From positions 5,911-69,910 of the IMG/VR virus record IMGVR_UViG_3300042451_000817: DNA of 64,000 nucleotides; one strand, 5' to 3'. This stretch comes from a virus. The notes under the pieces were generated by a model. That model did not search any database. It saw nothing but the letters and a program-made list of their open reading frames with translations, and was not told the origin of the DNA. Of the stretch, positions 6,445 to 51,906 are shown piece by piece (position 1 is the first letter of the stretch; each line of letters opens with the position of its first letter). The translations under genes and the position numbers were made by a program.

Positions 6445-6450
6445 AACGTA

Positions 6451-7465: not shown

Positions 7466-7600
7466 ATGGAAAATAAAAATTGTAAAAAATGTAATAACAC
7501 AGGATTAAAACTTCGTCATTGGTTGGTTGTAATCCTATCTTTCTATCTTTTGTTTGCATCGATATATGGAACAATTAAATTATTTAAGGAGTTCTTCTGA
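7466..7600 (+). CDS. Small membrane protein with CxxC, not in ORF track
   Basis: 44 aa MENKNCKKCNNTGLKLRHWLVVILSFYLLFASIYGTIKLFKEFF; A-rich leader. Confidence 0.55.
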   Translation: MENKNCKKCNNTGLKLRHWLVVILSFYLLFASIYGTIKLFKEFF

Positions 7601-25369: not shown

Positions 25370-25603
25370 ATGCCGGTACAAATAACCATAAATTCAATAA
25401 CTGGATTGTCTCCATACGATGTATATTTGTGCGACGACCCAATTACTAGTTGTTTTTATATAGACACTATAACAACTGGTTCAATACCTTATGTGTTTAA
25501 TGTTCCCGCAATTGTTGAAGATAATCTCTCATTCAATTTAAAAATTGTGGATAGTAATGAGTGTGAGTTTTACACATATTTAATAGTTAGCGGATTATGG
25601 TAA
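25370..25603 (+). CDS. Small Cys-containing beta protein, paralog of 34164..34385
   Basis: 'ITINSITGLSPYDVYLCD...C..I.TITT...FNVP...LKIVDSNEC'. Confidence 0.75.
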   Translation: MPVQITINSITGLSPYDVYLCDDPITSCFYIDTITTGSIPYVFNVPAIVEDNLSFNLKIVDSNECEFYTYLIVSGLW

Positions 25604-27921
25604 CAACAGGATGTTCGTCAACATATTGTATACAAGGAACTAATTCCATATTGGATGATGTTTATAGTGCTAACACAGGTTCAACGGTACCATCATATAA
25701 TGGTGAGTTATATTGGACAGGTTCAAGTAATGGTTATTTCATATATTATAAAAGTGCAACAACTCAATGGTGTTTATCAACGGCTTTGGGTGGAACTTGT
25801 TTATTATCAGGACCATCACCATCACCTAATAGTTGTCCTAATTTATCTCCATTTTTATTTAGTGAGGGAGATTGTCCGACAACCACGACAACAACAACTA
25901 ATCCTTGTAATGATTTTGACTTTGACGCATATTTTGATTGTTATGTTCCGCCTACAACAACTACTACATCAACTTCAACAACAACCACAACAACCACAAT
26001 ACCTCCTACCATATGTGTTGGTGTTGGTGTTGACGCGATAGCTGAATATGTTGATCCAATTCCAACATCAACTACAACCACATCTACAACCACAATCGCT
26101 CCTGTAGTCAGAGATTGTATATTTTTTGGTGATGTTACTTTTAATACTATAAATTCTATTATTGAATGTCCCGCTCTTGATGGTGATCCTCTTAGTGAAC
26201 AATTTCAAGATTGTTTTACTGGTGAATTATTATACGCCCCAATTCCAATTGCGACTCCAAGTGGAGACACTATAACTAAATTTATGATTTTTAGGTCAAT
26301 AGTTAATGGAGAATCAAGATGTATATCCTATTTAGGTCAAAATACTTGTAATACCGGTGTTAATAATATTGTGTTAATTGAAGGGCCTATTGGTTACTCT
26401 AACTTGGGCGATTGTGATAAATGTATACCACCAACAACTACCACCACAACAACAATTCCAATAGAATTTTGTGTATTAGGTACTGAAGATTTTAATTTTA
26501 TTTCTAGCGAACTTGAGGAATACTTATTTGAAGTGCCTTGTTATTCTTCCACGACAACTACCACCACAACTTCTCCATCTTGTTCTTGTCCTGAAGGTTA
26601 TACTTTACTACCTGACGGAGTTACCTGTGAAGAGATATTAGAAGAATTAGCAACTCCACCATTAAATCCAAGAATAATAGGGGTTAATTATGAAGATTAT
26701 CCTGCAACAAATGGTGGTCGTTTAGGTTTATTAGTTTATGAAGAAATAACCAATAAAGGATGGCCTATTTTTGGTTTACCTAATATACAGACAGGTTCTC
26801 CATCATTAAATAGTGCAACTCCAAGTAGTTTATCAATAATACCTGTTAGTGGTTATACCAATCAAGGTATTCTATACAATTCGTTATCACCATCGTCACT
26901 TCCGAACACCCCTCACGCATCTTTAAATTATCCTTTCGGATATTGGCCAGTACCTTATCCACCAACCAATAACCCACCTAATACACCTAATTTAGGTTTA
27001 GTCGGTAATCCACAAAGTTTGTCTTACTTAGCTGAAAGTTTTGTTAATTCAGGAGTTTTAAATCTTGGCAGCGGTAGTTCTATTAATATAGAATATAATA
27101 GATACGACGCAATAAATTTATTATGGGGTAAATATTCTGTATCGGGTTCTTGGGCTTCTCAAGTCGGAGTTTGGTCTGACGCACCATCACCACCTAATAC
27201 TAGTCCTTTATACGTATTAGCAAACACTTGGATAGGTATAACTCAATGTATAGAAATACCTGAAAGTAAAAAATATTATATATTAGTAAATGCCAATAAC
27301 GCAGTTAGAATCACTATTAATGGGTTACTTGCCGTAGAACTTAATAATGGTGATGGTGAAAAACAAGCTTTAGCATTTGTGAATTGTTTCCCAATAAGTC
27401 TGTCGGCCGGTACTTCAATAATTAATGTTGAGGGTGGTAACTATTTCGGTGGAGGTAATTTAGCCTTTGAATTATTAGACATACCTATAGACGATTTATT
27501 ATCCGCGACAACATATTCGAGTATTGAACCATATGTAATATTCTCAACAAAACAAAAAAGACCTAGAGCTTTTGATATTAATTTTATTAGTGGTAGTACC
27601 ACAATAACATCATCGAGTAATTTTTCGACTAATGATGTCGGAGCATTTGTTCAATTCCCTTCTTTTGTTTATTCTGGAACATATATAACCCAAGTTATTG
27701 ATTCAAGTACCGCAATAATTAATTCAGGAGCAACCGCAACAGGTTTAGGAGTTGCGGGAGTCGCTAACGGATCATCAACAGGTAGAATTTATTTCATATT
27801 TGATACGGGTCAATTATTTGCCAGTGGATTACCTCAAGGATTTACTTGTCCGGCAGGTTATACATATGTAAATTGTGGAGGCCCAACTTGTTTAAGTGTT
27901 TCTAGAGTTAATTGTACTTAA
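25597..27921 (+). CDS. Cys-rich, poly-Thr putative virion adhesin with EGF-like and PA14-like domains
   Basis: Five Thr tracts, 'CSCPEGYTLLPDGVTC', 'WIGITQCIEIPESKKYYILVNANNAVRITING...PISLSAG'; no signal peptide. Confidence 0.7.
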   Translation: MVTTGCSSTYCIQGTNSILDDVYSANTGSTVPSYNGELYWTGSSNGYFIYYKSATTQWCLSTALGGTCLLSGPSPSPNSCPNLSPFLFSEGDCPTTTTTTTNPCNDFDFDAYFDCYVPPTTTTTSTSTTTTTTTIPPTICVGVGVDAIAEYVDPIPTSTTTTSTTTIAPVVRDCIFFGDVTFNTINSIIECPALDGDPLSEQFQDCFTGELLYAPIPIATPSGDTITKFMIFRSIVNGESRCISYLGQNTCNTGVNNIVLIEGPIGYSNLGDCDKCIPPTTTTTTTIPIEFCVLGTEDFNFISSELEEYLFEVPCYSSTTTTTTTSPSCSCPEGYTLLPDGVTCEEILEELATPPLNPRIIGVNYEDYPATNGGRLGLLVYEEITNKGWPIFGLPNIQTGSPSLNSATPSSLSIIPVSGYTNQGILYNSLSPSSLPNTPHASLNYPFGYWPVPYPPTNNPPNTPNLGLVGNPQSLSYLAESFVNSGVLNLGSGSSINIEYNRYDAINLLWGKYSVSGSWASQVGVWSDAPSPPNTSPLYVLANTWIGITQCIEIPESKKYYILVNANNAVRITINGLLAVELNNGDGEKQALAFVNCFPISLSAGTSIINVEGGNYFGGGNLAFELLDIPIDDLLSATTYSSIEPYVIFSTKQKRPRAFDINFISGSTTITSSSNFSTNDVGAFVQFPSFVYSGTYITQVIDSSTAIINSGATATGLGVAGVANGSSTGRIYFIFDTGQLFASGLPQGFTCPAGYTYVNCGGPTCLSVSRVNCT

Positions 27922-27956
27922 AAAAAATGGTGACAAAATAATCACCAAATTTTTTC
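27921..27956. terminator. Hairpin between convergent genes
   Basis: A-tract-TGGTGA-CAAAATAA-TCACCA-T-tract. Confidence 0.5.
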
Positions 27957-28541
27957 TTGTTTCATATAACCTAAAACACAACAATAAGCATCGGATTGGT
28001 CGAAATTTTCTTTTTTAAGAGTATTGTTTTTGGTATATTGCCATTGTATTTGAGGTTCTCTTTTAGCAACTAAATCCCAAATTATTTGTTTTTTATCACA
28101 ATCTTTTGGATAACCTCCAAATAATACAAACTTACCCTTTTGATTTTGTTGAACCAAATGTGGGAAAGCATTTTTTCTTGAATTATACGTTGATATGAAT
28201 TCAGGAACAATACCTAAAGAATCGTAAATGAGTTTACATAGAAAACTATTGAACCTTAATAAGGTTTGTATTGTGTAGATATTGTTAGAATTAAGTAAAG
28301 GCTCTTCTATAATAACCTTAGTAATACCTAAATCAGTATATTGTATTAATTTTGTTTTAAAAATGTCACTCTTTAAAAGAAGTTCTTTAATTTTATCTTC
28401 TTCTTTTGGTTTTGGTTTAGGGGAAATGTGAGTTAATTCTAATAATTCTTTTGTTTGAATATCGAATAATGCCCAACCAATGGTGCTAGTGGAAATGTCA
28501 AGTCCTAATACTTTAGGACTTTGCTTTAAATTTTTTCTCAT
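27942..28541 (-). CDS. RuvC-like Holliday junction resolvase
   Basis: 'LGLDISTSTIGW', 'IIEEP', 'DQSDA'. Confidence 0.85.
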   Translation of the reverse strand: MRKNLKQSPKVLGLDISTSTIGWALFDIQTKELLELTHISPKPKPKEEDKIKELLLKSDIFKTKLIQYTDLGITKVIIEEPLLNSNNIYTIQTLLRFNSFLCKLIYDSLGIVPEFISTYNSRKNAFPHLVQQNQKGKFVLFGGYPKDCDKKQIIWDLVAKREPQIQWQYTKNNTLKKENFDQSDAYCCVLGYMKQEKIW

Positions 28542-28542
28542 A

Positions 28543-30990
28543 TTAAAAATCTAATTTTACTAAGAATTGCTGAGTTCCCTGTCTTAAAACAGGTGATTGC
28601 ATCTTAGATATAATCATAAGATTTTTTTCGTTATCGTAAAGACCAATTTCGGTAATAAATCTACGTTCGCTAACGTTCCAAGTAGGATTAGAAGGTGTTT
28701 GAAATTCTGTCTGACTCAAATTTACCTTATATCTCATTTCATAAATCGTTGCCTCAATATCAGCTTCAATTGAACCGTAAAAATAATACTCGTCTCCAAA
28801 GTTAAGTGATGTTCCACTATAATTGGCCGGTGTTAGAGGTATATAATCATTCAAATTATATAATGGAGCGCTATCGTATAAATCTTTAGTTATTACAAAA
28901 GTGTTTTGAGTTAATCCGTCTTGAGTTATATAACCATTAATCATAGTTGAATCTAATTGATCGGTAAAATCAATTACTTTCCATAAAGAAGAGTCAGGTC
29001 TACCGGTTCCAGAAACTTTTTGTACTAATATCTCAAATTTATTAGCGTAATAACCTTCAATAGTATCACAAGAAGTTGGACATAATGTCGTTGTTGTGGT
29101 TAATGGTTCATATGTTGTAGTTGTTGTGACATAAGGTGAAAATGGTTGTTTTAAACAATTAAATTCGGGTCCGAATTGTAAAGTAACATTTTGAGAACTT
29201 AAATTAGTACAATCAATATTTGGTCCTTGAATTTTAGTATAATAATTACAATGTAATGAATTTAGACAAAAAATATCATCATTAAATCTATAAGTTACAT
29301 ACAAATATTCGTCACTATTAAGTAGAATTCCTGTTGAATTACCTAATGTTCCGCAAACATTTGGCGTTATTAACCCTAATTTTGGTGCCGGTAATGTCCA
29401 ATTTCTATTAGATTTATAAGACATAGCGGCAATTATTTCTTCATCATCAAAAATAATCATTTTTTGGTCAGGAAATACTTTACCAACTCTATTAGGTCTT
29501 CCGTTGCTATCATTAGCATTTGTATCCCATAAGTGATAATATCTATGTCCAGGATTATTCATATCTAAATTTTTATTAGATTCTAAATAATAAACTTGAA
29601 ACAGATTAAGATTCTCAAATCCTGGAGGGTCAACCCAAAATGTTTGACCATAACAACATTCAGGGTTTTTGTGCCACATAATCCAAGGTATATGAACTCT
29701 AAAATTTCTAGCCTGTCCCGTATTACCAGGATTATCTTGATCAAAAGGCTCTAACGCAAATTTTTCACCATAATATAAACCAGGTGAATTATTGGTATAA
29801 TGAACTATCGATATTGCTTTTTGTTCTTTAGGTTCAACAAATACTATTTCTCCTAAAGAATTATAATAATAAACATAATCGGTATCATTTTGACCATTAC
29901 TATTAGAGTAGCCAAAATATTCTTTAGAACCCAAATAATTTATCGATCCAAATTTCGTATAACCAGCATAGAATGATGGATTTAACCCTGCGGGGTTTTC
30001 AGACCAAGGAGTGTTCATATTCCACACATTTGTAAATGTTACCCCCGCATTACATTCAGATTGGAAATCTATTACCCCAGCATTATATGTTGGTACCGTA
30101 CTATCATAAATGGTGGTCATATTTGGTGGATATACCAAAGCTCTAACATAACAATCTCCACCTAAAATTGATAAATTTGGTGTTGGTCTATCTAAAGTAA
30201 CCTCATTATTACATATTGAGATTATTCTATATGTCATCATTGGATGGCAACTATCGATATTCATAACACAATCCACAGGTGGTGTTGGTATGAAAGGTTC
30301 TGTTGTCGTTGTTGTGGTTGTCGGCTCAATCGTTGTCGTTGTTGTGGTAGTAGGTGAACAAGGATTAAATGTGGTTGTGGTAGTTGTTATTGGTATTGTG
30401 GTAGTAGTCGTTGTTGTTGCGGTGCAAACACAAGTATCGGTAATGTTAGGATTATAATAAAAAGTTATAAAATCTCCCGCCGCAGGTTGTCTAACAATTC
30501 CTTCACTACAATCCGAATAAATTAAAGTAACTTTATCACTACAACCAAAATCTGAAATATGTACAACATAATTAGAATTAATCACATAATCTTCACTTGT
30601 AAAAACTTTCCAATCAACAGGTGTATCCTCAATATTTTCTGTATCCCCATCAAAAAAACCTTTCATAGCGGCGGTATTATATATTAAAGAAACTACTGAA
30701 TCGGAAAAAGGGATTCCGTAAGTATTTCCGCTAGTCCCATCTACATAGTAAGGATATTTAGTATATTGTTTGTTTGATTCCGGAACTCCCGATATATTAC
30801 TAGAATTAAATGATGGTTCTAAAACATATGAATTTGCGTGAGGAAAAGAAGGTATTGCGTCGTAAGATACTTCACTATCCCCTATTTGAAAATAAGAAAT
30901 ATTAAAATTTCCCTGAGATAATTTTCTTCTACCTGTATCAGTTAATTTTGTATTAATTAACCCTGATGTGTTTTTTATTATATAAGACAT
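28543..30990 (-). CDS. Tail/collar structural protein with poly-Thr inserts
   Basis: N-terminal 'LTDTGRRKLSQG.FNISYFQIGDSEVSY', C-terminal 'ITEIGLYDNEKNLMIISK' tail-collar-like motif. Confidence 0.7.
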   Translation of the reverse strand: MSYIIKNTSGLINTKLTDTGRRKLSQGNFNISYFQIGDSEVSYDAIPSFPHANSYVLEPSFNSSNISGVPESNKQYTKYPYYVDGTSGNTYGIPFSDSVVSLIYNTAAMKGFFDGDTENIEDTPVDWKVFTSEDYVINSNYVVHISDFGCSDKVTLIYSDCSEGIVRQPAAGDFITFYYNPNITDTCVCTATTTTTTTIPITTTTTTFNPCSPTTTTTTTIEPTTTTTTTEPFIPTPPVDCVMNIDSCHPMMTYRIISICNNEVTLDRPTPNLSILGGDCYVRALVYPPNMTTIYDSTVPTYNAGVIDFQSECNAGVTFTNVWNMNTPWSENPAGLNPSFYAGYTKFGSINYLGSKEYFGYSNSNGQNDTDYVYYYNSLGEIVFVEPKEQKAISIVHYTNNSPGLYYGEKFALEPFDQDNPGNTGQARNFRVHIPWIMWHKNPECCYGQTFWVDPPGFENLNLFQVYYLESNKNLDMNNPGHRYYHLWDTNANDSNGRPNRVGKVFPDQKMIIFDDEEIIAAMSYKSNRNWTLPAPKLGLITPNVCGTLGNSTGILLNSDEYLYVTYRFNDDIFCLNSLHCNYYTKIQGPNIDCTNLSSQNVTLQFGPEFNCLKQPFSPYVTTTTTYEPLTTTTTLCPTSCDTIEGYYANKFEILVQKVSGTGRPDSSLWKVIDFTDQLDSTMINGYITQDGLTQNTFVITKDLYDSAPLYNLNDYIPLTPANYSGTSLNFGDEYYFYGSIEADIEATIYEMRYKVNLSQTEFQTPSNPTWNVSERRFITEIGLYDNEKNLMIISKMQSPVLRQGTQQFLVKLDF

Positions 30991-31022
30991 TATAAATAAT
31001 TATTTTACATTATTTTTTTTTA

Positions 31023-33137
31023 TTAAAATAAATCATTAAAATCGTTACCTTTATTAATTAGGCTTTTAAATGAAACATTTTTACTAATTGTTTTTAAACT
31101 AATCATTATCGGGCACTCCCCCTCCACTACCGTTGCGGTTCCTGATAACCCAACAACAATCCAATTATTTAATGGTGGAAAAGCCGGATTTAAAGATAGT
31201 ACAAAATAACTTCTAACAGGATTGAAATTAACTTTCCATTGTGACGATGTATTATCCCAAATTAATGAATCTCCTCCAGATGAAACCCAAGATAATTTTC
31301 CATTAACAACTACATTAGGTTCAAATTGTATTGATTCTGTTGTAGTTCCAGTACTTTGTATTGTAGATATTGACATACAAAGTGTATTCCCTGTAGGTGT
31401 TGGAGCGATTGTCGTTGTTGTTGTAGTTGTTGGTCTTACCGCAACTAATTCACAAATTGTTACCGCAGTAAAATCACCATAATAATCAACGGTCGTTGCC
31501 GTATACGACCCTTCCGTTAAATTAAAAATGTCGGGGTTAGTGTTTCCATTACTCCAAGTTGTTAAATATGGTGAAGTTCCTCCTGATATTGATAATGATA
31601 TTGATCCGTCAGCTGAGGTAGGTGATGTAGGATTTGTTGGTATACATTCTACATCCATAGTAAATACCGTTGTAGGTATACACTCATTACAGGTAGGTAT
31701 TACATAAGGTATTGGTGTTGGTGTTGGGGTGGGTGTTGGTGTTGGAAGTTGGGGACATATTTTAGGTAAAACTGAAAAACTAATTGGGGAATCTCCAACG
31801 CAATTACAAATTTCACTATCGTCAATTTGCCATTGACCATCGTAAGGACATTCGATGTCTTTTTCCGCAATTTGTGCTAAAATTAATTGGTTGGTTGTAT
31901 CATAATAAATCCAAACACCACTATAAAATAATACTTTATCATCATTAAGATAAAAAGGTTTTCCATTTATAGTTCCTGAAGGAGTTAAATTAGATATCTG
32001 TGTCAATCCTTCACCAGCCTCCAAATCACAGGTTAATGTTGTTTTAATACAACCACAAATATCAATAGAATTACAAAAATTATAACAAGATCCTGTTGTC
32101 TCAATTATAGTGGTTGCTGAACTGGTGCTAATTGGTTTATCATATGCACAAACCTCCATAGTATCATCAATAGATAATAAAATAGCTTTTTTAGGATTTG
32201 TATTTAAATTATCATAAAAAGTTATTACTTCGTCATCTGTAGTCGCGGTAATTACCCAACATTTCTTAGATTCATTAAATTCGGGATAACAATCGTAAAG
32301 ACTTAATGTAAAATCATCTACAAAAATTGATGGTGTCCAATTGGTGTTAATAGAACCTGTTGGTGGACATATTCCTCCTCCGGTTGTGGTTGCCGATACT
32401 TGTCCGTCAATTTCAAAAACCCATTTAGAATCGTCCCAATATATTCTATAACCAACATCACTAATCCAAAATGTTTTTCCGTTGATAGTTCCTCCAACAT
32501 AAAATTCCAAATTATCGTCTTCATTCGAAACTATAATACATTCACAATATCCTGTTGGGACGCAATCTAAAAAACAATTATTTGAAGTTTTGGCGGAATA
32601 AAAATTAGATACGTTTGGTGGAACTACTATCGGTTCTCCTTTTAAACAAAATGAGGAAGTTCCTCCTGAACTTAATACAAACGCTTTCCCTTCATTATTA
32701 CAATCATAATATGAAATTGTGTAAGTACTATCCGCACTAAAAAACCAACAACTACAATCACCGCAAGTATCTCCTGTCGGGTTTGGACAAGGTTGGTCTC
32801 CTTTATAGGATAAAATAGGCGCCGTACCCCCTGAACAAAATTCAAAATCTGTAGTATCCGCAATATCCCAATTATTAAAATTACAAATACTAGAATTTGT
32901 AGATGAGGAAAAAATTGTAACTCCGGGATTCAATACGTCTTCAAAAGACCACCCGTTTATTACGAAATTCCAATATATTATATAATTGTTTCCTGAATAA
33001 CTACCAATATAATATGGTTTTTCACCATAACCTGTATTAATATAACCTTCTTGAAACAAATCGATGCTAAAAACGCTCTCATCAGAACATTCAAAACTTA
33101 ATTTAAGACAAACACAGGCACTTGATCCACCAGCCAT
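31023..33137 (-). CDS. Cys-rich repeat protein with SprB repeat and PT/poly-Thr tracts
   Basis: Repeated 'NGK..W/Y...IYW...W' units, (PT)n, 'DGSISLSISGGTSPYLTTWSNG...NLTEGSYTATTVD'. Confidence 0.7.
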   Translation of the reverse strand: MAGGSSACVCLKLSFECSDESVFSIDLFQEGYINTGYGEKPYYIGSYSGNNYIIYWNFVINGWSFEDVLNPGVTIFSSSTNSSICNFNNWDIADTTDFEFCSGGTAPILSYKGDQPCPNPTGDTCGDCSCWFFSADSTYTISYYDCNNEGKAFVLSSGGTSSFCLKGEPIVVPPNVSNFYSAKTSNNCFLDCVPTGYCECIIVSNEDDNLEFYVGGTINGKTFWISDVGYRIYWDDSKWVFEIDGQVSATTTGGGICPPTGSINTNWTPSIFVDDFTLSLYDCYPEFNESKKCWVITATTDDEVITFYDNLNTNPKKAILLSIDDTMEVCAYDKPISTSSATTIIETTGSCYNFCNSIDICGCIKTTLTCDLEAGEGLTQISNLTPSGTINGKPFYLNDDKVLFYSGVWIYYDTTNQLILAQIAEKDIECPYDGQWQIDDSEICNCVGDSPISFSVLPKICPQLPTPTPTPTPTPIPYVIPTCNECIPTTVFTMDVECIPTNPTSPTSADGSISLSISGGTSPYLTTWSNGNTNPDIFNLTEGSYTATTVDYYGDFTAVTICELVAVRPTTTTTTTIAPTPTGNTLCMSISTIQSTGTTTESIQFEPNVVVNGKLSWVSSGGDSLIWDNTSSQWKVNFNPVRSYFVLSLNPAFPPLNNWIVVGLSGTATVVEGECPIMISLKTISKNVSFKSLINKGNDFNDLF

Positions 33138-33162
33138 ATAATTAAACTTTAATCATAAATAT

Positions 33163-34143
33163 TTAGTTTTCATTTTTAATTATGCTTTTCATAATTTCAA
33201 TGTATTTTATTGTAGAACTATTCTTATCAATATAATCGAAATGATTAATATTTTGTTTTAATCTATCTAAAGGGTTGACATTAATATATTCTCCTTTATA
33301 AAATTTTTTACTTTTTAAATTTTCTGTCACACCCGCCATATGTAAAATTGGTTTTTTTTCATAAGTCTTAATGTCGTCAGTTGCCCAAGAAAAATCTAAA
33401 CTATTATGTATTTTTGTTTCAAAACCAAAATACCATAAATTCCATAATAAAGACCACATTTCAGCTGTCCAAAATTGAATTTGTCCCGGATTAATTGGAA
33501 ATCTTTTTTGGTAATCTAACATTTGATTATACAAGGGAGTACAATCTGAATATATTTTTTCCCACATATCTTTGTTTGTGTTTTTTATAATATATTGACC
33601 TCCACCTGAGTTTTCTTGATTACATTTTATACAATCAATAGTAATTCCGACAACATTAACCATTTCATCTAATAATTGTTCTTTATTTGAATTTGGGTGA
33701 TGTTTTTCATATCTGTCACAACAATCTTTTATGTAGTTGTAACCAATATAACCTATAGTATCGGATAAATAAATTATGTCGTCTTTTAATAAGTCATCAT
33801 AATTTGGTTTTTCTCTAAAAACAATATCCGCATCGTGAAGAAAAAAATTTTTACCCAAATTAGGATATTGTTCTAACCATTTTGATATTAAAAATGGTTT
33901 TATACTGGGTATATATTTTTTATCTTTTCTATCATCAATATAGTGATGAACGTTAACTTCATATTTTTTTAAATTAAGTGACCCTGTTGTGGGATTTTCT
34001 CTACCATTCTTTAACGCAAAGATAACGTGAATATTTTTTGGATTAATACCTTTTTCGATAAAATTATTTATGTAGATTTCCGATTGCCAATGGAAATAGG
34101 GTACATCGGGTTGTGCCGAAACAAATACTAAATCATTATTCAT
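33163..34143 (-). CDS. Glycosyltransferase, GT-A fold, resembling plant HPAT (GT95)/SGT1 (GT96) peptidyl O-glycosyltransferases
   Basis: 'YFHWQ', 'YIPSIKPFLISKWL', 'HDADIVFR' (DxD), 'WTAEMW', 'ILHM', 'FYKGEY'. Confidence 0.7.
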   Translation of the reverse strand: MNNDLVFVSAQPDVPYFHWQSEIYINNFIEKGINPKNIHVIFALKNGRENPTTGSLNLKKYEVNVHHYIDDRKDKKYIPSIKPFLISKWLEQYPNLGKNFFLHDADIVFREKPNYDDLLKDDIIYLSDTIGYIGYNYIKDCCDRYEKHHPNSNKEQLLDEMVNVVGITIDCIKCNQENSGGGQYIIKNTNKDMWEKIYSDCTPLYNQMLDYQKRFPINPGQIQFWTAEMWSLLWNLWYFGFETKIHNSLDFSWATDDIKTYEKKPILHMAGVTENLKSKKFYKGEYINVNPLDRLKQNINHFDYIDKNSSTIKYIEIMKSIIKNEN

Positions 34144-34163
34144 AAATCAAATATATGAATAAA

Positions 34164-34385
34164 TCAAGAACAATAAAGTATTTCGAAATTTTCACATTCA
34201 GAACACACAATTCTTAATAGTATTACGGGAGCGTAAATATATTGTGAAGGTAGATTAAATGAAACAGGAAAAGATGGTGTTGTGATTTGTCCTATTTCAA
34301 CGCATTCCGTATTATATATAGTACAAACATAAACACTACACGGAAATGAGTCGCCAGAAACGTTATTTATTTCAACTGATGTCAT
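34164..34385 (-). CDS. Small Cys-containing beta protein, paralog of 25370..25603
   Basis: 'VEINNVSGDSFPCSVYVC...C..IGQITT...FNLP...LRIVCSEC'. Confidence 0.7.
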   Translation of the reverse strand: MTSVEINNVSGDSFPCSVYVCTIYNTECVEIGQITTPSFPVSFNLPSQYIYAPVILLRIVCSECENFEILYCS

Positions 34386-36797
34386 TTAATCGCAAGAAAC
34401 ACAAGAAATTAAATATTTAATTATCATATCGATTCTAACTTGAGCGCCTCCCAAGTTGGACGCGATATCTTCGCAATCATTTTTAACTTCAATAGTATTG
34501 TTTTCACCGTCAATATCGACCGTTTGTATTCCGTTATAACTTAATAACAATTCGGTTATTGTTTCGTACCATAAATTGTTCGATGGATAATCGGTAATTG
34601 ATGTCCCAGTGTAAAAATATTTTTGTCTAATATCTCCATTGATATTTGTTTGAGCGACGAATACTGATTCATTAATTATACAATCTGTATCTCCGCTAGT
34701 TAAATCGTTGAATCCTTCTATTAGAAGAGATTTAGGTCCTTTAACTAAAACAAATCCATTGTCGTCTAAATTAGAGTCACATATATTAAAAACTTCATAA
34801 CTAACAACGCTACCTAAACCATTAACTCGTATTGTTTTTGTTTTAGTACAACCGCTACTATCAGTTACTTCCAAAGAATATGTACCCGCGGTTAAGTTTG
34901 TTATAGTTATACCTGTTTGACCATTAACATTAGGACTCCAATCCAATATAAATGGAGGTGTTCCGTCAGTTATTAATGCCGTTATAGTTCCGTTACCACC
35001 TAAATTAGCGTCTGTGGCCACCAAACTAAAATCTACGGAGTTTGTGGATATAACACTAAAATTAATATTTTGACCACAATTAGTCGCATCTGTAACCGTA
35101 CCAACATAATTACCAGGGGTTAAACCTGTAAATGTATAAGTTAATCCTGTCGTTATTACAAATTGGTCATTTATTTGATAGGTGTACGGTTGAGTTCCTC
35201 CTGTACTTATGGTTAATGTTACTTCACCTTCCGCAGAATCACATAAACTACCGATTGTTGTGGCACTTAAACCAAACTTACTAGTATTGTTAATTGTGAA
35301 ATTATTATTATATACACAAGTTCCAACCCCAGAGTCCTCAATTTGAATTGAGTATGTCCCTGACTTTAACCCTGTAAATGTGGCGTTTGGACTTGTTGCG
35401 GTTTGATTATATGTATTACCGCTCGAATCTATTATTGTAAAATTATATGGGGATGTACCTCCAACCAATGAAATTACTACTTTACCCGAACTATCGTTAC
35501 AAAATGAATTTGTTGTAATAAAACTAACTAAACTAAATGAATTAGGGGTTAAAAGAGCAACGCTTTGCGTGAAAGAACATAATCCGGCATCAGTAACAAT
35601 AACCGTAAAATTACCGCTACCTAATCCTGTGAAAGTATAACTTTGTGAAAAACTAATAGCATTAATACCATTAGACCCTAAATAACTATATGGGGGGGTT
35701 CCTCCTATTACGTTTACGGTTATTTCACCGTCACCAGCAAAACAACTTGGGGGTAGTAAATCAAATGATCCAAAACTTACGGGTTCAACGTCAACAACCG
35801 TAGCTCCGGTTACTTTAACACAACCTACAGAGTCTTCAACCGTAACACTATAAACACCTGATGTAATTCCTGTTATATTTTGAGTGGTTTCTCCATTACT
35901 CCAAAGATAAGTATATGGAGGAGTTCCTGTTAATCCTGTTATATAAATCGCTCCCGCATTATCAACTGAACATCCGGCATTATTTACAACATAAAACCCA
36001 TAATCTAAACTAGTGGAAGGTCCAACTAAAAATGTGGCACTTTGTCCTGTACATCCTCCACCATCATCACCAATTACATAATAATAGCCGCTTTCAATAT
36101 CATTAAAAACATATGTATCAGATAATAATGTTCCAGATGTTACATATGTGTTATCTTGTTTATATAATTGAAAAGTTGCTAATCCGTAGTAATTTGAGGT
36201 TTCCGCGGTAACCGCCCCATTGGGTAAATCACATAAAGTGTTTTTAATCCCTGTTATGGATACGTTAGTTCCGCTTGAAATGTAAATATCAATAGGATAT
36301 ATGTTGTTTATAGGTAAACAACTATCAATTAAATTTATTGTATAGGTTCCTGCCGATAAATTAGTTTGTGTGTATGCCGTTACTCCAGGACCTAATGGAA
36401 CAATATCGGATTCTTGTAATGAATCAACCGTTATTGTTATGTCATTAGTAGGACTTGATCCCCCAACATTACTTCCTAAAATAGTTAATGAATCTCCAAT
36501 TTGGTATCCTGTACCTGGGTCACTAAGATAAACCGTATATACCCCATATAAGTTGACAACATTAAACTTAACATCAGCACCGCTACCGCCTGAAGCTCCT
36601 ACATTTGAATAGGTGTTATTGTCAATAACATTTCCGCCGCTTGACGTATCTGTAAACCCTGAAACTCCGGTTCCAGGATATAACTCTTGTATTGAATAAT
36701 CCGGAGCACTTCCGTAAATTTCTATGGTATACGCACCTAATCCGGCGTTTCCACAATCACCCGTAACCGATAAACTATATGATAAAGCACAAGACAT
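34386..36797 (-). CDS. SprB-repeat structural protein
   Basis: Multiple 'GGTPPY.Y.WS....TGL..G.Y.V.VTD..GC' repeats; no signal peptide or T9SS CTD. Confidence 0.82.
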   Translation of the reverse strand: MSCALSYSLSVTGDCGNAGLGAYTIEIYGSAPDYSIQELYPGTGVSGFTDTSSGGNVIDNNTYSNVGASGGSGADVKFNVVNLYGVYTVYLSDPGTGYQIGDSLTILGSNVGGSSPTNDITITVDSLQESDIVPLGPGVTAYTQTNLSAGTYTINLIDSCLPINNIYPIDIYISSGTNVSITGIKNTLCDLPNGAVTAETSNYYGLATFQLYKQDNTYVTSGTLLSDTYVFNDIESGYYYVIGDDGGGCTGQSATFLVGPSTSLDYGFYVVNNAGCSVDNAGAIYITGLTGTPPYTYLWSNGETTQNITGITSGVYSVTVEDSVGCVKVTGATVVDVEPVSFGSFDLLPPSCFAGDGEITVNVIGGTPPYSYLGSNGINAISFSQSYTFTGLGSGNFTVIVTDAGLCSFTQSVALLTPNSFSLVSFITTNSFCNDSSGKVVISLVGGTSPYNFTIIDSSGNTYNQTATSPNATFTGLKSGTYSIQIEDSGVGTCVYNNNFTINNTSKFGLSATTIGSLCDSAEGEVTLTISTGGTQPYTYQINDQFVITTGLTYTFTGLTPGNYVGTVTDATNCGQNINFSVISTNSVDFSLVATDANLGGNGTITALITDGTPPFILDWSPNVNGQTGITITNLTAGTYSLEVTDSSGCTKTKTIRVNGLGSVVSYEVFNICDSNLDDNGFVLVKGPKSLLIEGFNDLTSGDTDCIINESVFVAQTNINGDIRQKYFYTGTSITDYPSNNLWYETITELLLSYNGIQTVDIDGENNTIEVKNDCEDIASNLGGAQVRIDMIIKYLISCVSCD

Positions 36798-40753: not shown

Positions 40754-41929
40754 TTATTCATTTATTATATTAAAAAACTTATACCCATATTTGGTTAAAT
40801 CTCCAACATTATCAACTTCTCCCAATCTTTGCAAACTTTCAAGTGCCGATATTTTACCTCTTTCAACCATTACATCACTTTGAATTAATGGTTCGTCAAT
40901 AACATTTAATAAAACCTCGTCTTTGGTTATTGCGGAACAAATTAACATATCTTGAGTATAACCGGATGATGATACCTCAAAAATTGTAGTTCCTCCTGAA
41001 TAATCCTTATATGAAATGTCGTTTATTGTATATGATGTATAAGAATTATCTGAAGAAGGTCCGAAGAATGTACCAATACACCCTGAAGTTCCGGTAACTT
41101 GTATACCGAGTTTAAATTTACCAGCATATAAACTTGTTTTAGGTCCATATTGTTGTAAATCATTAACGGATGATGTTGTATATCCCGTAACTAAAAATGG
41201 TACCGTGGTATAGTTACTACTAATTTGTGAGTTCGCATCACAATACGAATCTCCTGTAAAAATATAGTCGTAATTAACAGGTGTTGCCGACCAGTTACCC
41301 CCTTGAGGATAAAAGGTTGCGGTTCCGTATGGGTTTGATATAACCGCATCTGTAAATGGTACTATTATATCTTTTTTTATTATATTAACCCCCCAAGGAC
41401 TTACCCCCGAAAAGGTTATTGTAAAATTACCATTAGATCCGTAAGTATGGATATAATAATCAGGTGATGAAGTGGTTATTGTCTGTATTGGCGTTCCGTC
41501 GCCCCAATCTAAATTAAAATCACTAAATTGTAAGTATTTTTTATCACTATCATAAGTGTTGTAAAAATAGTAAGTGTAAGGGTCTATAGTTGTTGATGAA
41601 AATAAAAAATTTAACATCGTATCTTTTTGTAAAACCGCCCCATCAAAAACACTATAATAACCCAAATCAATTGTTTCTTGAGTTAATAATATAGGTATTG
41701 TTAACCCTGTTAACAATGATGTTTGTCCCGTCCCTCCCGATAAAACTTGCGTCATCGATGAATACACATAAGTTATACCAGTATACTTTGAGGTTGTGGT
41801 TGTTGTAACTATATCACAACAAGGGTCATCAATAATATTAGGAAATATTTCACCATAACTATAAGTTACAGGATAAATAGTATTAACAACTTCAGGTGAT
41901 ATTTTTATATAATATTTTCTATCTTCCAT
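40754..41929 (-). CDS. Structural protein with PKD-like domain
   Basis: 'LDWGDGTP...HTYGSNGNFTIT'; short Thr tract. Confidence 0.65.
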   Translation of the reverse strand: MEDRKYYIKISPEVVNTIYPVTYSYGEIFPNIIDDPCCDIVTTTTTSKYTGITYVYSSMTQVLSGGTGQTSLLTGLTIPILLTQETIDLGYYSVFDGAVLQKDTMLNFLFSSTTIDPYTYYFYNTYDSDKKYLQFSDFNLDWGDGTPIQTITTSSPDYYIHTYGSNGNFTITFSGVSPWGVNIIKKDIIVPFTDAVISNPYGTATFYPQGGNWSATPVNYDYIFTGDSYCDANSQISSNYTTVPFLVTGYTTSSVNDLQQYGPKTSLYAGKFKLGIQVTGTSGCIGTFFGPSSDNSYTSYTINDISYKDYSGGTTIFEVSSSGYTQDMLICSAITKDEVLLNVIDEPLIQSDVMVERGKISALESLQRLGEVDNVGDLTKYGYKFFNIINE

Positions 41930-49544: not shown

Positions 49545-51383
49545 TCAGGAGAAATTAACGGATTTTAGATTTTTAACTCTAATGTTAATATCTCTACTTG
49601 GAAATCTCACTTGATATATTTGTGTTGGTTCCGCGAAAATCGTATCGTCTATTAACTCTATTTGTTTTGTTGCCGGGTTAGAATATCTTTGAGATGTTTG
49701 AGATGATGAGTATTGTCCTCCTACATTATTAAAAACTGAAATGTCTGATAAAGATATTACCCCGTTTTCACTTTGTATTTGTCTTCTTAATTCTGATATA
49801 TTAACGTTTTTACCTAATTGCATATTGTCGGGTGAAAAATAATTAGTAACAAGATTGACAACACTTGATATTACGTTTCCTTGGTTTTGAGTGTTATCTA
49901 ACACAATATCAATACCTAATGATAAATCAATAACTTTTGCGGTTTCAACTGAGATATAATCATTCATCATTCTATAATTAGATAAATAATTAGCAATATT
50001 ACTTTTTAAAGTGTTTGAAACAATGTCTGTTAATACCCCATTTTCATCAAATGAAAGAATTTTTATTTTAATTTTATTATCTTCTTCAACAATAGCCACT
50101 TTAGCCGGAGCTCCGAATTGGGATGGCATTGTTCTTAAAATAGAATCGTAATCATTAACCGTAACTGCTCTATTTTGAGACGCGAAATTAAAACTAACTA
50201 AATTTCTAATTTCTTCAAGTGTCGGTAAACCCGCACCCCCAATAGCTGCCGTCACATTATTACACCTTAAAGAATTGACAACATTAGCATTTACGCTTGT
50301 TGATGGTCCGTTTACAAAAAATGATACGGTTCCAATTTGAGTTATAACATTAACCCCTAAATTACTTGTAGTTCCTCCACCAATTCTATATTGAATGAAT
50401 AGTGTTGAGTTAGGTTTTAGGGTACTGCCTAAGGCGAAATTATTTGAATATTTATATAAATCTAATTTATATCCGTTTCTCGCGAACTCTCTTAATTGTT
50501 CGTCAGCAGATTGTGAACCGCCGCCAAAAGTTAGTTTACAAAAACCTTCAGGTGTATATTCGGTAATGAATTTATTATTCGCCGTTACGTATTTTCCAAC
50601 TTTAATACCCGGATTGTCAGATGTTTTTGTAGGATCTTCAATAAAAACTCTATCTTCAGCAAGAGCTTTAACTTCGTACCACCTGTTCTCGGTATTTAAA
50701 AATTCTTGCGAATTAGGAACGTTCGCGTATTGTGTCCCATCCTTCAATATTACACTTGTTACACCTAAAACATTTTTTTCGGGTAAAAAAAGTTCGTAAA
50801 ATGGTTTAACTTCTTGTGGGGTAATAACTTTCTTAAATACTTTAGTAATCCCATTAACAACGGTTTCTCTTTTAGTTATCGTATAATTAACCAATCTATT
50901 AAAACTATCAAAATTTGGTATTTTTACTCTATTTGGATATCCTTCAGCGTTTGTTGGTGAAGTAAAGTCAATATCGTATACGGTTTCAAAAACTTGTCCT
51001 GCCCCAATAACTTGAGATCCTCTTCGTAAAAGACCACAATACCTTAAATCCTCAGCATCACCATTTGCCGGAACCGTTATCGAAAAATCAACTAACGCGA
51101 CTGATGGTCTTTGTCCGGGTATCTTTAATCCGTAAGTTCTTGCGATATTATATACTGAAGATTTTTGTTGTGCGTATTGTAGTACCGTTTCTTGTATACT
51201 CCTGTCAATATTAAATTGTAGATTATCTGTTACCGCAGCATTTAAATCAATTAAAACTGAAAATATCGAGGCGTCATTGAAATTTTCTACTACTTCAGGA
51301 TAATAAATTTTTGTAAAATTTATTAATTCTGTTCTTATGGAATCAAAATCTCTTGTAGTGTAGGATATTTTTTTATTTGCCAT
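49545..51383 (-). CDS. Baseplate wedge protein (T4 gp6-like)
   Basis: 'RDFDSIRTELINF', 'NIARTYG', 'YRIGGG..SN', 'QNRAVTVNDY'. Confidence 0.88.
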   Translation of the reverse strand: MANKKISYTTRDFDSIRTELINFTKIYYPEVVENFNDASIFSVLIDLNAAVTDNLQFNIDRSIQETVLQYAQQKSSVYNIARTYGLKIPGQRPSVALVDFSITVPANGDAEDLRYCGLLRRGSQVIGAGQVFETVYDIDFTSPTNAEGYPNRVKIPNFDSFNRLVNYTITKRETVVNGITKVFKKVITPQEVKPFYELFLPEKNVLGVTSVILKDGTQYANVPNSQEFLNTENRWYEVKALAEDRVFIEDPTKTSDNPGIKVGKYVTANNKFITEYTPEGFCKLTFGGGSQSADEQLREFARNGYKLDLYKYSNNFALGSTLKPNSTLFIQYRIGGGTTSNLGVNVITQIGTVSFFVNGPSTSVNANVVNSLRCNNVTAAIGGAGLPTLEEIRNLVSFNFASQNRAVTVNDYDSILRTMPSQFGAPAKVAIVEEDNKIKIKILSFDENGVLTDIVSNTLKSNIANYLSNYRMMNDYISVETAKVIDLSLGIDIVLDNTQNQGNVISSVVNLVTNYFSPDNMQLGKNVNISELRRQIQSENGVISLSDISVFNNVGGQYSSSQTSQRYSNPATKQIELIDDTIFAEPTQIYQVRFPSRDINIRVKNLKSVNFS

Positions 51384-51388
51384 ATTAG

Positions 51389-51832: not shown

Positions 51833-51863
51833 AACTATTATTTTATTATAAATATAATATAAT

Positions 51864-51906
51864 ACAAAAAATCCCGACATTATGTCGGGATTATTGTCGG
51901 GATTAT
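51864..51906 (-). terminator. Terminator after nrdA with duplicated arm
   Basis: AATCCCGACAT-T-ATGTCGGGATT hairpin plus U-tract; second TGTCGGGATTAT copy. Confidence 0.75.

Follow-up and report, generated by a model that had tools for sequence, protein, structure and literature searches.

Why does a phage carry a glycosyltransferase (GT) gene among genes for proteins studded with threonine runs, and on what would the enzyme act? The question is raised by a 64,000-nucleotide stretch of viral DNA (IMG/VR record IMGVR_UViG_3300042451_000817, positions 5,911 to 69,910), referred to here as the window, for which a first reading had proposed that the phage O-glycosylates Thr-rich stalks on its own virion with a plant-type enzyme. 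All coordinates below are those of the window.

The glycosyltransferase and its distant relatives

33163..34143, minus strand: GT-A glycosyltransferase, 326 aa, soluble, of the unnamed phage family phrog_4417
33826-33834, minus strand: DxD motif D104-A-D106 of this GT
33340-33342, minus strand: invariant H268 of this GT

The protein belongs to phrog_4417 by a significant full-length profile match (E 2.9e-75, residues 7-320 against profile positions 3-290 of 293). Its AF2 model (pLDDT 97.1, pTM 0.94) confirmed a GT-A fold, predicted as a single Rossmann-like alpha/beta/alpha domain: a Foldseek search of the PDB gave 358 matches at E<=1e-3, all of them GT-A among the matches listed, and VIA-align Z scores ran from 15.0 to 13.0 across the best 12 matches. 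The best solved folds were glycogenin (Z 15.0), Skp1 alpha-GalT (14.3), LgtC (14.2) and GlyE (13.6), aligned over 209-230 residues at 9-12% identity, with the PBCV-1 capsid GT A64R at Z 11.5; several of these, namely glycogenin, Skp1 alpha-GalT, GlyE and A64R, have proteins as their targets. The original prediction of a GT-A enzyme at 33163..34143 was therefore borne out in coordinates, and in fold by structure prediction and fold search. We take the best matches to be GT8/GT24/GT6-type GT-A enzymes in CAZy terms, and because the fold is GT8-like the modeled mechanism is probably retaining, that is, one that gives an alpha-linked product from a UDP-alpha-sugar.

Sequence searches were far less informative than the fold. 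At E<=10, the Pfam scan yielded PF03407 alone (E 0.01, 16.3 bits, under its 22-bit cut-off) and no match to Glyco_transf_8 (GT8), to which the likeness is structural only, and NCBIfam returned no family. The protein had no match in a sequence search of the PDB, in which the family profile gave GNPTAB alone (E 0.36), and no record of the phage collection was matched when 20 kb of the window was run by megablast. Within the family, D106 and H268 are invariant in 59/59 sequences and D104 is kept in at least 90%, while both DxD aspartates are invariant in two alignments of fused family forms (A2, 94 sequences; A3, 88 sequences). The longest hydrophobic stretch is only 5 residues, so the enzyme is expected to have no membrane anchor.

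The plant-type label of the first reading, which likened the enzyme to GT95/GT96, found no support as it stood. The motifs behind it were all found and in the order given (YFHWQ at residue 16, YIPSIKP at 77, KWL at 88, DADIVFR at 104 and WTAEMW at 225), and the first reading likened them to those of SGT1 (GT96) and HPAT; plant HPAT1-3 belong to CAZy GT95. The Pfam HPAT family PF23452 (gathering score 23.9 bits), however, did not match the GT at E<=10, was touched by 2 of 59 family members at E of at least 0.09, and was found at E<=1e-3 in 0 of 88 fused relatives; the PF23452 model found true members in two of five bacterial genomes. A longer-protein search with the family profile for plant SGT1/HPAT gave 13 matches, none named, and the closest folds are GT8-type. 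What survives is at most a remote link to bacterial PF23452 proteins. Here hhalign returned probabilities of 90% over 105 columns and 84.6% over 248 columns against such proteins, and 76.9% over 266 columns against a 40-sequence bacterial alignment, with 0.2% for a GT2 control; the pairwise E values of 2e-6 to 2e-5 are not database-calibrated and concern bacterial members only. The aligned motifs were Y-x-WQ, Y..(S/N)(I/K)(R/K)P, DxD(I/C)(I/V)F and W.(A/S)(D/E)M, and when the 30 named ESM-Atlas clusters closest to the GT were examined, PF23452 occurred in 20 of them, in 10-58% of the members. Altogether, these observations are suggestive of a shared superfamily, with a remote, near full-length relationship at most.

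Threonine-rich proteins around the gene

25597..27921, plus strand (opposite to the GT): 774-aa protein with six Thr runs and a cEGF-like module; predicted acceptor
25879-25998, 26071-26082, 26434-26454 and 26551-26571, plus strand: Thr runs of the 774-aa protein
28543..30990, minus strand: 815-aa protein with six Thr runs, conserved widely in the phage lineage; predicted main acceptor
30301-30417, minus strand: Thr-rich linker 1 of the 815-aa protein (T7, T6, T7, T7)
29086-29127, minus strand: Thr-rich linker 2 of the 815-aa protein (T5, T5)
31023..33137, minus strand: variable protein of 704 aa, rich in Cys, immediately downstream of the GT; predicted acceptor
31716-31745, minus strand: (PT)5 of the 704-aa protein, at residue 465
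31410-31430, minus strand: T7 of the 704-aa protein, at residue 570
34164..34385, minus strand: 73-aa ORF between the SprB-repeat protein and the GT
34386..36797, minus strand: adhesin-like protein of 803 aa with SprB repeats, just upstream of the GT; context
40754..41929, minus strand: 391-aa protein with one T5 run (41792-41806, residue 42); weak candidate acceptor
49545-51383, minus strand: baseplate gp6/Baseplate_J-like gene
51389-51928, minus strand: baseplate gp25-like gene

Counted over the 79 window ORFs that reach 70 aa, there are 14 runs of four or more threonines, eight of them exactly T7, and all 14 fall within four ORFs. The tracts had been counted as five in 25597..27921 and about five in 28543..30990; they are present in both proteins, and each has six (at residues 95, 120, 128, 159, 280 and 319 in the former and at 192, 202, 214, 224, 622 and 631 in the latter). 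The (PT)n and T7 tracts described in 31023..33137 and the single tract in 40754..41929 are as predicted, and so is the mixture of Thr codons (ACA 49, ACC 16, ACT 13 and ACG 8 of 86). When the residues of each protein were shuffled 2000 times, the mean was 0.02 runs of T>=5; the counts of the proteins with five and six such runs were matched in 0/2000 shuffles, and those of the two single-run proteins were reached in 34/2000 and, for 40754..41929, in 18/2000.

Database searches said little about these proteins. Matches to the 815-aa and 704-aa proteins were missing from the phage collection by tblastn, and an ESM Atlas search on the Thr-rich proteins gave unnamed viral clusters only. AF2 modeled the 815-aa protein too poorly for a fold search (pLDDT 50, pTM 0.38), and at E<=0.5 in PHROGs its sole match was a faint one to a tail fibre in a C-terminal piece (phrog_1162, E 0.058); this would fit a P2 gpH-like 'GLYD' motif and was not counted as evidence. 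Orthologues of this protein share 50-82% identity, and linker 1, poly-T here, is (TP)n in most relatives. The 704-aa protein has a weak SprB-repeat match (E 8e-4, under the Pfam cut-off), and the ORF at its position in relatives is variable in size and usually carries T runs. The 774-aa protein matches Pfam cEGF (E 5.5e-8), and relatives have antisense ORFs with T runs at the equivalent place. Upstream of the GT, 34386..36797 has four SprB repeats (Pfam, 2.5e-23) and no run of T>=4, and the 73-aa ORF showed neither a Pfam or PHROG match nor a Thr run.

Baseplate wedge genes recognized by PHROG 219, 261 and 43 and Pfam PF04865 and PF04965 lie upstream on the same strand (49545..51928), which places the co-directional ORFs downstream of them in a tail module. 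The placement of the GT inside a tail cluster agrees with these genes, but the large intervening ORFs mostly lack a family match, the SprB repeats in 34386..36797 being the exception. Judged by gene position, the four proteins with Thr runs would be located on the virion. A GT2 gene at 60233-60907 was considered as a further part of the system and set aside; it is absent from 3/3 near-complete relatives that carry the GT and weakly present (30% identity) in one of two that do not.

Pairing of the enzyme with threonine runs, and what else could explain it

The family occurs beside Thr-rich proteins well beyond this window. Phage phiFL1A has a major tail protein ending in GTTTTTSTTTTTTSSTTTTTTTQASSK followed by the GT gene, Bacchae has a 116-aa protein of TTTTTSTTTVKP repeats followed by the GT gene, and in Chryseobacterium phage MA9V-3 the GT gene follows a protein with PPTTTTTTSTTTTTTSSTTTTTT. 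When bIL285 and iLp84 were scanned genome-wide, the only coding-strand tracts made up mainly of Thr ([ST]>=6 with at least four T) were C-terminal ones, in head, decoration and tail proteins, and in phiFL1A, iLp84, bIL285 and R3.3 the phage-encoded GT is linked to capsid/tail genes with candidate acceptor termini. We also surveyed about 6 kb around the GT at 80 loci in bacterial genomes of different species. Of the 80, 42 have a run of T>=5 within this distance; at 35 a run precedes the GT by no more than 400 nt on the same strand and usually sits at the C-terminal end of a protein of capsid, decoration or tail-tube size. At 35 loci a run ended within 15 aa of an ORF end. The peptide and protein settings in which the family occurs elsewhere also speak for a protein target: some members are fused to GT60-type GlcNAc-T, protein O-FucT, GT7C, GT6, GT29, F5/8C or radical-SAM/SPASM domains, and Bacteroidota chromosomal copies adjoin LanC-like genes (which follow the Chitinophaga and Mucilaginibacter copies) or lie near a C39-peptidase ABC exporter (Sphingobacterium).

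Enzyme and Thr runs also tend to be present or absent together. Among homologous major tail proteins, a poly-Thr end was found in 2/2 from GT-bearing phages (phiFL1A and R3.3) and in 0/4 from phages that lack the GT in their whole records (Javan47, Javan505, Silenus and phiJL-1). In the lineage of the window phage, leaving aside five loci with a short upstream flank, the 815-aa orthologue carries T>=5 runs at 41 of 46 GT-bearing loci and at 0 of 29 GT-lacking loci, a result in line with the co-occurrence proposed for checking in the original prediction. The companion outcome, Thr tracts kept by relatives without the GT, was not seen in this orthologue, but six of the 29 loci keep a T>=5 run in another ORF. 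Two relatives, 96% and 100% complete, have no GT anywhere in the record. Once relatedness is accounted for, four independent supported pairs are left, in which the T runs agree in about three and are never opposite, a number of pairs with which a sign test cannot reach 0.05. Matches to (ACN)6 regardless of frame numbered 8-12 in complete GT-bearing genomes and 2 (1-2 places) in GT-lacking ones; a control with the pattern reversed swung from 0 to 14 per strand, too widely for these frame-independent counts to be relied on. Silenus, which has neither GT nor Thr tail, had also come up as a phage reported to be glycosylated; 'glycos' and 'glycan' occur 0 times in PMC7260188, and this candidate was dropped.

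The alternative that survives best, though we consider it unlikely, is that the tracts of Thr and Thr/Pro serve as plain flexible linkers or C-terminal tails, unmodified or otherwise modified, that the GT acts on some other target (a different phage residue or protein, or one of the host), and that the neighborhood reflects late co-expression or linkage. Thr/Pro-rich linkers are common flexible linkers for which modification is unnecessary, and the (TP)n form of linker 1 in most relatives is of this common type. Additionally, the 815-aa orthologue lacks T runs at 5 of the 46 GT-bearing lineage loci, and in 38 of the 80 bacterial loci the 6 kb around the GT hold no run of T>=5; when these 38 and one more (L119) were looked at again, at least 31 of the 39 lacked an S/T-rich window as well. 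Thus, other acceptors exist and Thr runs are not a universal partner of the enzyme. Against plain linkers stand the very specific adjacency, with 61 of the 147 runs at the bacterial loci in the 400-nt bin before the GT start; its recurrence in siphoviruses, a herellevirus, a Chryseobacterium phage and the jumbo lineage of the window; and the lack of T runs in all 29 orthologues and all four tail-protein homologues from GT-lacking phages.

Less probable still is that the GT alters a host envelope glycan (LPS, teichoic acid or capsule) for superinfection block or receptor change, as serotype-converting phage glycosyltransferases do. Many family members reside in Bacillota prophages, and GT8-type GT-A enzymes include the LPS enzyme LgtC; while the original prediction had named a match to DNA-modifying or LPS/capsule enzymes as evidence against itself, the best match was glycogenin, but LgtC also matched. 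An envelope role would sit poorly with a GT that lacks a membrane segment, that has neither flippase nor lipid-carrier genes near it in the window, and whose gene lies within structural modules between head and tail genes and not at lysogenic-conversion sites. It also occurs in a jumbo-phage lineage, no integrase family was found in the window, and the link with Thr tails would be left unexplained.

We regard as very improbable a role in glycosylating phage DNA bases against restriction, in the manner of T4 glucosyltransferases or GREB1-related TET/JBP-associated GTs. Phage GTs are often DNA-modifying, according to passages of two papers (PMC12619734, PMC7968844), and the Bacchae GT gene is near UvsX and a sigma factor genes. 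TET/JBP (PF12851) was found in 0/5 relatives, four of them at least 93% complete, a weak result since the PF12851 control matched no genome. The only match to the thymidylate-synthase family (PF00303) scored 299 bits against ThyA and would be an ordinary ThyA. In temperate siphoviruses the GT gene sits between capsid and tail genes, and a DNA target leaves the Thr-tail link and the RiPP-like and protein-GT fusion contexts unexplained. Least probable of all is maturation of a small secreted or structural peptide in RiPP-like fashion instead of large fibre proteins, which the LanC-like and exporter neighbors of the Bacteroidota chromosomal relatives, the radical-SAM/SPASM fusions and the 73-aa ORF directly upstream of the GT would favor. 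Against it, neither LanC nor an exporter or RRE gene occurs in the window, the 73-aa ORF is free of Thr runs, and phage GT copies track Thr tails of large structural proteins.

Proposed role and comparison with known systems

Taken together, the genomic evidence makes it likely, in our judgment, that the GT at 33163..34143 O-glycosylates Thr tracts in fibre- or baseplate-associated proteins that the phage itself encodes, and so puts mucin-like linkers on the particle. The enzyme would be a soluble, cytoplasmic, metal-dependent GT-A that acts in late infection and moves a sugar from a nucleotide-sugar donor to Thr hydroxyls in poly-Thr and Thr/Pro-rich linker tracts. Its acceptors would be 28543..30990, 31023..33137 and 25597..27921, and perhaps 40754..41929, and the assembled particle would then bear O-glycosylated, mucin-like linkers. 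What the analysis shows is the fold, the catalytic motif, the tracts and the tie in genomes between this enzyme family and Thr tracts; that Thr is the acceptor, that these proteins sit on the virion, which sugar is moved and what the phage gains are parts of this account that we infer. Possible benefits are protease protection and, as speculation, linker stiffening, shielding or adhesion. The O-glycosylation of Thr tracts first proposed thus gains from adjacency in unrelated phages and from joint presence and absence, and loses its plant-type label as stated and its claim to be without precedent in phages.

More generally, the family sits beside Thr-tailed capsid and tail proteins in many unrelated phages, and this pattern in their genomes suggests that phages with phrog_4417 probably sugar-coat their particles. 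A still broader proposal, on which we are evenly divided, is that poly-Thr is a portable glycosylation tag written by phrog_4417, a dedicated soluble family and distant kin of the plant extensin HPAT enzymes, in phages of Bacillota and Bacteroidota and in aquatic jumbo phages on capsids, tail tubes and fibres, that enzyme and tag come and go together, and that bacteria reuse the enzyme family on ribosomal peptides. If these proposals hold, many phages would glycosylate their virions and the trait could be predicted from the genome sequence alone, with Thr runs as a simple mark of glycosylated particle proteins, and a second, far wider enzyme family would be at work in phages of lactic acid bacteria, enterococci, staphylococci and Bacteroidota and in uncultured jumbo phages. 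They would bear on phage immunogenicity and stability in therapy and dairy settings, on fibre behavior in mucus or water and on the origin of plant HPAT-type protein glycosyltransferases, and the tag might be of use in engineering for glyco-display. Cultured phages in which the idea can be tested directly already exist.

With HPAT (PF23452), the GT has in common the aligned motifs and an occurrence of both families in peptide or protein contexts, bacterial HPAT-like proteins being fused to PqqD. HPAT is a membrane-anchored Golgi enzyme whose acceptor, hydroxyproline, is supplied by prolyl 4-hydroxylase, whereas the phage GT is soluble and its presumed acceptor is Thr and not Hyp; a 2OG-Fe(II) oxygenase or prolyl hydroxylase was not found among the 55 window ORFs scanned. 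Glycogenin, LgtC, Skp1 alpha-GalT and GlyE, which we take to be GT8-type retaining enzymes (GlyE being part of the pneumococcal serine-rich-repeat protein pathway), have the same arrangement of a DxD and a distal His, and several GT8-type enzymes act on protein hydroxyls or protein-bound glycans; the GT differs from them in its sequence, with identity of 12% or less and no Pfam GT8 match. PBCV-1 A64R, one of the giant-virus capsid glycosyltransferases, offers a further comparison as a virus-encoded cytoplasmic GT-A that glycosylates the capsid protein of its own virus, but its match is much weaker than those of the GT8-type enzymes, and PBCV-1 infects eukaryotes and is not known to use a poly-Thr tag.

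To our knowledge, phage virion glycosylation has been documented so far only in a few mycobacteriophages, whose virion O-glycosylation was reportedly described by Freeman et al. in Cell Host Microbe in 2023. The literature, covered mostly outside subscription journals, yielded no account of a phrog_4417-type enzyme or of phage poly-Thr tags. The first reading knew of no phage precedent, but passages of published work describe virion glycosylation by phage-encoded glycosyltransferases in Che8 (gp110), Corndog (gp38) and Myrna, with glycans reportedly carried on the C-terminal ends of capsid and tail-tube subunits (PMC12619734, PMC12363180, PMC12894461). That is the same place as the poly-Thr tails of the family-bearing Bacillota phages, and in both cases, if our proposal for the window phage is right, a phage-encoded GT decorates the phage's own particle proteins. 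The mycobacteriophage enzymes belong to another family, since no Mycobacterium phage is named among the 77 phage records that tblastn matched, and phrog_4417 is found instead with Bacillota and Bacteroidota hosts and in an uncultured jumbo lineage. The window, known from sequence alone, differs further in that its tracts are internal linkers of fibre-like proteins and not tails of capsid or tail-tube subunits. Phage virion glycosylation is therefore already known, by other enzymes, and phrog_4417 would, if the proposal is true, be the second family to carry it out.

Gene setting and threonine tracts of the window

The window covers 64 kb of a viral contig that is 69.9 kb long and has approximately 30% G+C. 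Near-complete relatives of the phage measure 274-321 kb and the completeness of the contig was estimated at 24% (CheckV), and thus the contig is one part of the genome of an uncultured jumbo phage. Genes for replication and nucleotide metabolism included RNR, a DnaB-like helicase, a primase, UvsX-like and gp32-like proteins, SbcCD and a sigma factor. The baseplate wedge genes are followed by a dense row of large ORFs without a family match that reaches down to 28543, and the gene of the candidate glycosyltransferase (GT) is located within this row. The features relevant to the analysis are listed here, with the wedge genes assigned by family match and the threonine runs counted by translation.

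51389-51928 (-), gp25-like baseplate wedge gene
49545-51383 (-), gp6/Baseplate_J-like baseplate wedge gene
40754-41929 (-), ORF with one run of five threonines (T5)
33163-34143 (-), candidate GT, 326 aa
31023-33137 (-), ORF with one T7 run plus (PT)5
28543-30990 (-), ORF with six runs of four or more threonines (T>=4), encoding an 815-aa protein that is the predicted main acceptor
25597-27921 (+), ORF with six T>=4 runs

Translation and the count of T>=4 runs confirmed the ORFs and tracts at the positions named in the original prediction, which had been made from the sequence alone. All 14 T>=4 runs of the window fall within four of its 79 ORFs of at least 70 aa. Residue shuffling inside each protein produced on average approximately 0.02 runs of five or more threonines (T>=5); the observed counts in the two richest proteins (5 and 6 runs) were matched by 0/2000 shuffles, and those in the two single-run proteins by 34/2000 and 18/2000. 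The 86 threonine codons within the runs were mixed (ACA 49, ACC 16, ACT 13, ACG 8), and therefore the runs are not simple DNA repeats. Exactly seven threonines were counted in 8 of the 14 runs (e.g., at 30301-30417, 26434-26454 and 31410-31430), a clustering that looks as if one tag length were preferred, and T6-T7 were also the prevailing run lengths in the tails of Bacillota prophages.

Several other features of the window were recorded. The protein of ORF 25597-27921 (+) is Cys-rich and carries a complement-type EGF-like (cEGF) module at residues 323-345 (Pfam 5.5e-8, above cut-off); its neighbours are Cys-rich too (2.3-4.8%), an unusual composition for proteins synthesized in the cytoplasm. 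At 55290-57737 (-), the ORF of the DnaB-like replicative helicase (815 aa) includes homing-endonuclease domains (LAGLIDADG_3 and Hom_end, residues 417-500) with helicase segments on either side, and looks like an intein-containing helicase. A second glycosyltransferase at 60233-60907 (-), a GT2 enzyme (Pfam 2.5e-14) flanked by the UvsX-like and gp32-like genes, was missing from all three GT-bearing near-complete relatives and weakly matched in one of two relatives without the GT; it is an accessory gene uncoupled from the Thr-tract system. Also present were a full-length DnaJ with J domain, Zn finger and C-terminal domain (7584-8519 (-)), a sigma-70-type factor (17557-18357 (-)) and a Dam-type methyltransferase adjoining a free-standing LAGLIDADG endonuclease (5608-7224 (-)).

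The enzyme and its probable distant relation to plant glycosyltransferases

The 326-aa GT matched no Pfam family at gathering score (sole match PF03407, E 0.01), no NCBIfam family and no relative in a PDB sequence search, and was assigned to the unnamed phage family phrog_4417 at 2.9e-75. A large protein collection contained 1344 relatives, none with a functional name, and a search of representatives clustered at 50% identity gave 842 relatives at E<=1e-3. Across an alignment of 59 relatives, D106, H268, Y77, Y132, G181, W225, F251 and G271 were invariant and D104 nearly so. The AlphaFold model (pLDDT 97.1, pTM 0.94) falls among GT-A enzymes by both Foldseek and VIA-align, the best solved folds by VIA-align Z score being glycogenin (15.0), Skp1 alpha-galactosyltransferase (14.3), LgtC (14.2) and WbbM (14.2), followed by the UGGT catalytic domain (13.8), GlyE (13.6) and, lower, the PBCV-1 capsid glycosyltransferase A64R (11.5). 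The leading matches are mostly retaining enzymes of CAZy families GT8, GT24 and GT6, several of which act on proteins, and a retaining mechanism is predicted for the GT. The longest hydrophobic segment of the GT has 5 residues, and therefore the enzyme is soluble and cytoplasmic.

The original prediction had likened this enzyme to the plant-type peptidyl glycosyltransferases HPAT and SGT1 (GT95/96) on the basis of motifs, all of which were found in the GT in the quoted order. Membership in GT95 itself did not hold. The window GT gave no match to the HPAT model PF23452 at E<=10, only two of 59 GT relatives touched the model (both E>=0.09), and 0/88 fused relatives matched at 1e-3; by Pfam's standard, the window GT is not a member of the HPAT family. 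A more distant relationship was indicated by the ESM Atlas, in which PF23452-bearing clusters accounted for 20 of the 30 named clusters nearest to the GT, and by profile comparison with two Pfam-verified bacterial HPAT-family proteins, one of which had 150 relatives at E<=0.001 (most of the 120 listed being fused to PqqD). Alignment of the phage-family profile to the bacterial HPAT-family proteins with hhalign gave probabilities of 90% (105 columns), 84.6% (248 columns) and 76.9% (266 columns, 40-sequence profile), with the Y-x-WQ, DxD, W-x-(A/S)-(D/E)-M and His motifs in the aligned columns, and the window's GT2, used as an unrelated GT-A control, gave 0.2%. The original motif comparison was in this respect partly vindicated, and the phage family and HPAT, compared here through the bacterial HPAT-family proteins, probably share a distant superfamily.

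Chromosomal relatives provided information about acceptors. The GT copies of Chitinophaga (L133) and Mucilaginibacter (L136) each form a fusion with a second GT domain, with a Glyco_transf_7C match in the latter, and have a LanC-like gene after them; the GT-bearing ORF of Sphingobacterium (L158), ~500 aa in length, has a GT2 and a C39-peptidase ABC exporter in its vicinity. No Thr tracts were found near any of these three loci, which are candidate glycosylated ribosomal-peptide clusters. Other family members are fused to radical-SAM/SPASM domains. Since LanC-like genes, the C39 exporter and radical-SAM/SPASM fusions are hallmarks of ribosomal-peptide maturation, peptides are indicated as acceptors of the family as a whole. 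Partners among the 88 fused relatives were Glyco_transf_7C (8/88), F5/8 type C (4), GT2 (2) and GT29, GT6 and GT25 (1 each); a GT60-type GlcNAc transferase and a protein O-fucosyltransferase were also encountered. An Acidimicrobiales genome (L099/L167) carries a GT-F5/8C-GT60 fusion adjoining a Pfam-confirmed P4H-type 2OG-Fe(II) oxygenase, together with an epimerase and a PF23452 (HPAT) protein that is encoded separately. A Myxococcales genome encodes an HPAT-like protein (L166), most of whose listed relatives are fused to PqqD (RRE), beside a 464-aa ORF, with a phrog_4417-type GT on a separate locus (L122). The gene content of these two genomes looks like a bacterial pathway in which peptides are hydroxylated and glycosylated.

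Co-occurrence of the enzyme and threonine runs

A tblastn search detected the family, at 32-37% identity, in 77 phage records; 23 of these were from Lactobacillus, 21 from Enterococcus, 11 from Staphylococcus and 8 from Lactococcus phages, the rest had other hosts, and no Mycobacterium phages were listed among them. In Enterococcus phage phiFL1A, the major tail protein gene ends where the GT gene begins, and the tail protein has the C-terminus ...GTTTTTSTTTTTTSSTTTTTTTQASSK; the capsid-region protein gp45 of the same phage, annotated as 'conserved hypothetical', ends in PTTTTTKPTTTTTTTQG. A 116-aa protein of TTTTTSTTTVKP repeats precedes the GT in the L. plantarum myovirus Bacchae, as does a protein with PPTTTTTTSTTTTTTSSTTTTTTAAP in Chryseobacterium phage MA9V-3. 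Two whole genomes were searched for predominantly Thr tracts on the coding strand ([ST]>=6 with >=4 T). The only such tract in bIL285 (35.5 kb) was the C-terminal tail of the major tail protein, and the only ones in iLp84 (39.4 kb) were the C-terminal tails of the major head, small decoration-like and major tail proteins; the GT gene of both phages is part of the head-tail module.

A scan of prokaryote genomes, with one genome per species, returned 80 GT loci, mostly prophage-like. A T>=5 run was present within ~6 kb of the GT in 42/80 loci and not found in 38/80; it lay at most 400 nt upstream on the same strand in 35/80, and ended within 15 residues of an ORF end in 35/80. The 400-nt upstream bin, ~3% of the sequence examined, held 61 of all 147 runs. 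One locus (L086), a 5.3-kb contig binned to a 'Candidatus Woesearchaeota' MAG, has a GT 67% identical to that of the window with a poly-Thr ORF adjoining, and is most likely a mis-binned phage contig of the window's lineage.

Many phages encode homologues of the phiFL1A tail protein, at 50-60% identity. Both of those from GT-bearing phages (phiFL1A and R3.3) end in poly-Thr, versus 0/4 from Javan47, Javan505, Silenus and phiJL-1, whose whole records lacked the GT by a profile search that recovered the R3.3 GT as positive control. Three of these phages, R3.3, Silenus and phiJL-1, are members of the genus Coetzeevirus.

The lineage of the window phage was represented by 80 loci gathered via the conserved 815-aa protein, five of which were set aside because their upstream sequence was too short to decide on the GT. 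The GT was present within 7 kb upstream in 46 of the remaining 75 and not there in 29. GT and runs track together in these loci: the 815-aa orthologue carries T>=5 runs in 41/46 GT-positive loci versus 0/29 GT-negative loci (Fisher p 5e-16, uncorrected for relatedness). Two GT-negative relatives, 96% and 100% complete, had no GT anywhere in their records. Because many of the loci are near-duplicates, relatedness was considered on a FastTree tree with T/P/S tracts masked, on which GT presence changes at least 8 times; supported branches provided four independent pairs, a number with which a sign test cannot reach significance, and the Thr trait changed in the same direction in ~3 and in the opposite direction in none. 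A T>=5 run was kept in another ORF in 6/29 GT-negative loci, on contigs 10-18% complete, so that a GT may lie elsewhere in these genomes. The complete GT-negative genomes contain one or two (ACN)6 stretches each, as nucleotide-level matches in any frame (G017:C1:205996-206015; G018:C1:261220-261236 and 307267-307283). Most lineage relatives have (TP)n instead of poly-T in the first linker of their 815-aa protein, and the acceptor, if any, would be better described as a Thr-rich linker than as pure poly-Thr.

Likely function and comparison with known phages

Altogether, the GT, a soluble GT8-like GT-A enzyme from a widespread family that has no name, most likely functions in O-glycosylation of Thr-rich tracts on particle proteins of the phage itself, a role that we consider quite probable. 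The adjacency in other phages and the co-presence of GT and runs support the protein O-glycosylation proposed originally, and the scanned prokaryote loci without nearby runs, together with 5/46 GT-positive lineage loci without a T>=5 run in the 815-aa orthologue, count against it. The chief competing explanation is one in which the tracts are simply linkers and the GT has a different target. Glycosylation of phage DNA is disfavoured by the placement of the GT gene inside structural modules, by an ordinary-looking ThyA and by TET/JBP matches in 0/5 relatives, but the control for that model also matched nowhere. Modification of the host envelope is likewise disfavoured by the gene position, the lack of a membrane segment in the GT and the lack of lipid-carrier genes.

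A literature search, with subscription journals mostly outside its coverage, returned no description of the phrog_4417-type enzyme family or of a poly-Thr tag in phages. The broader statement that nothing of the kind had been described for phages is out of date, as virion glycosylation of mycobacteriophages Che8, Corndog and Myrna has been published. The glycans of these phages are reported on the C-terminal ends of capsid and tail-tube subunits, with a role in antibody shielding (PMC12619734, PMC12363180, PMC12894461).
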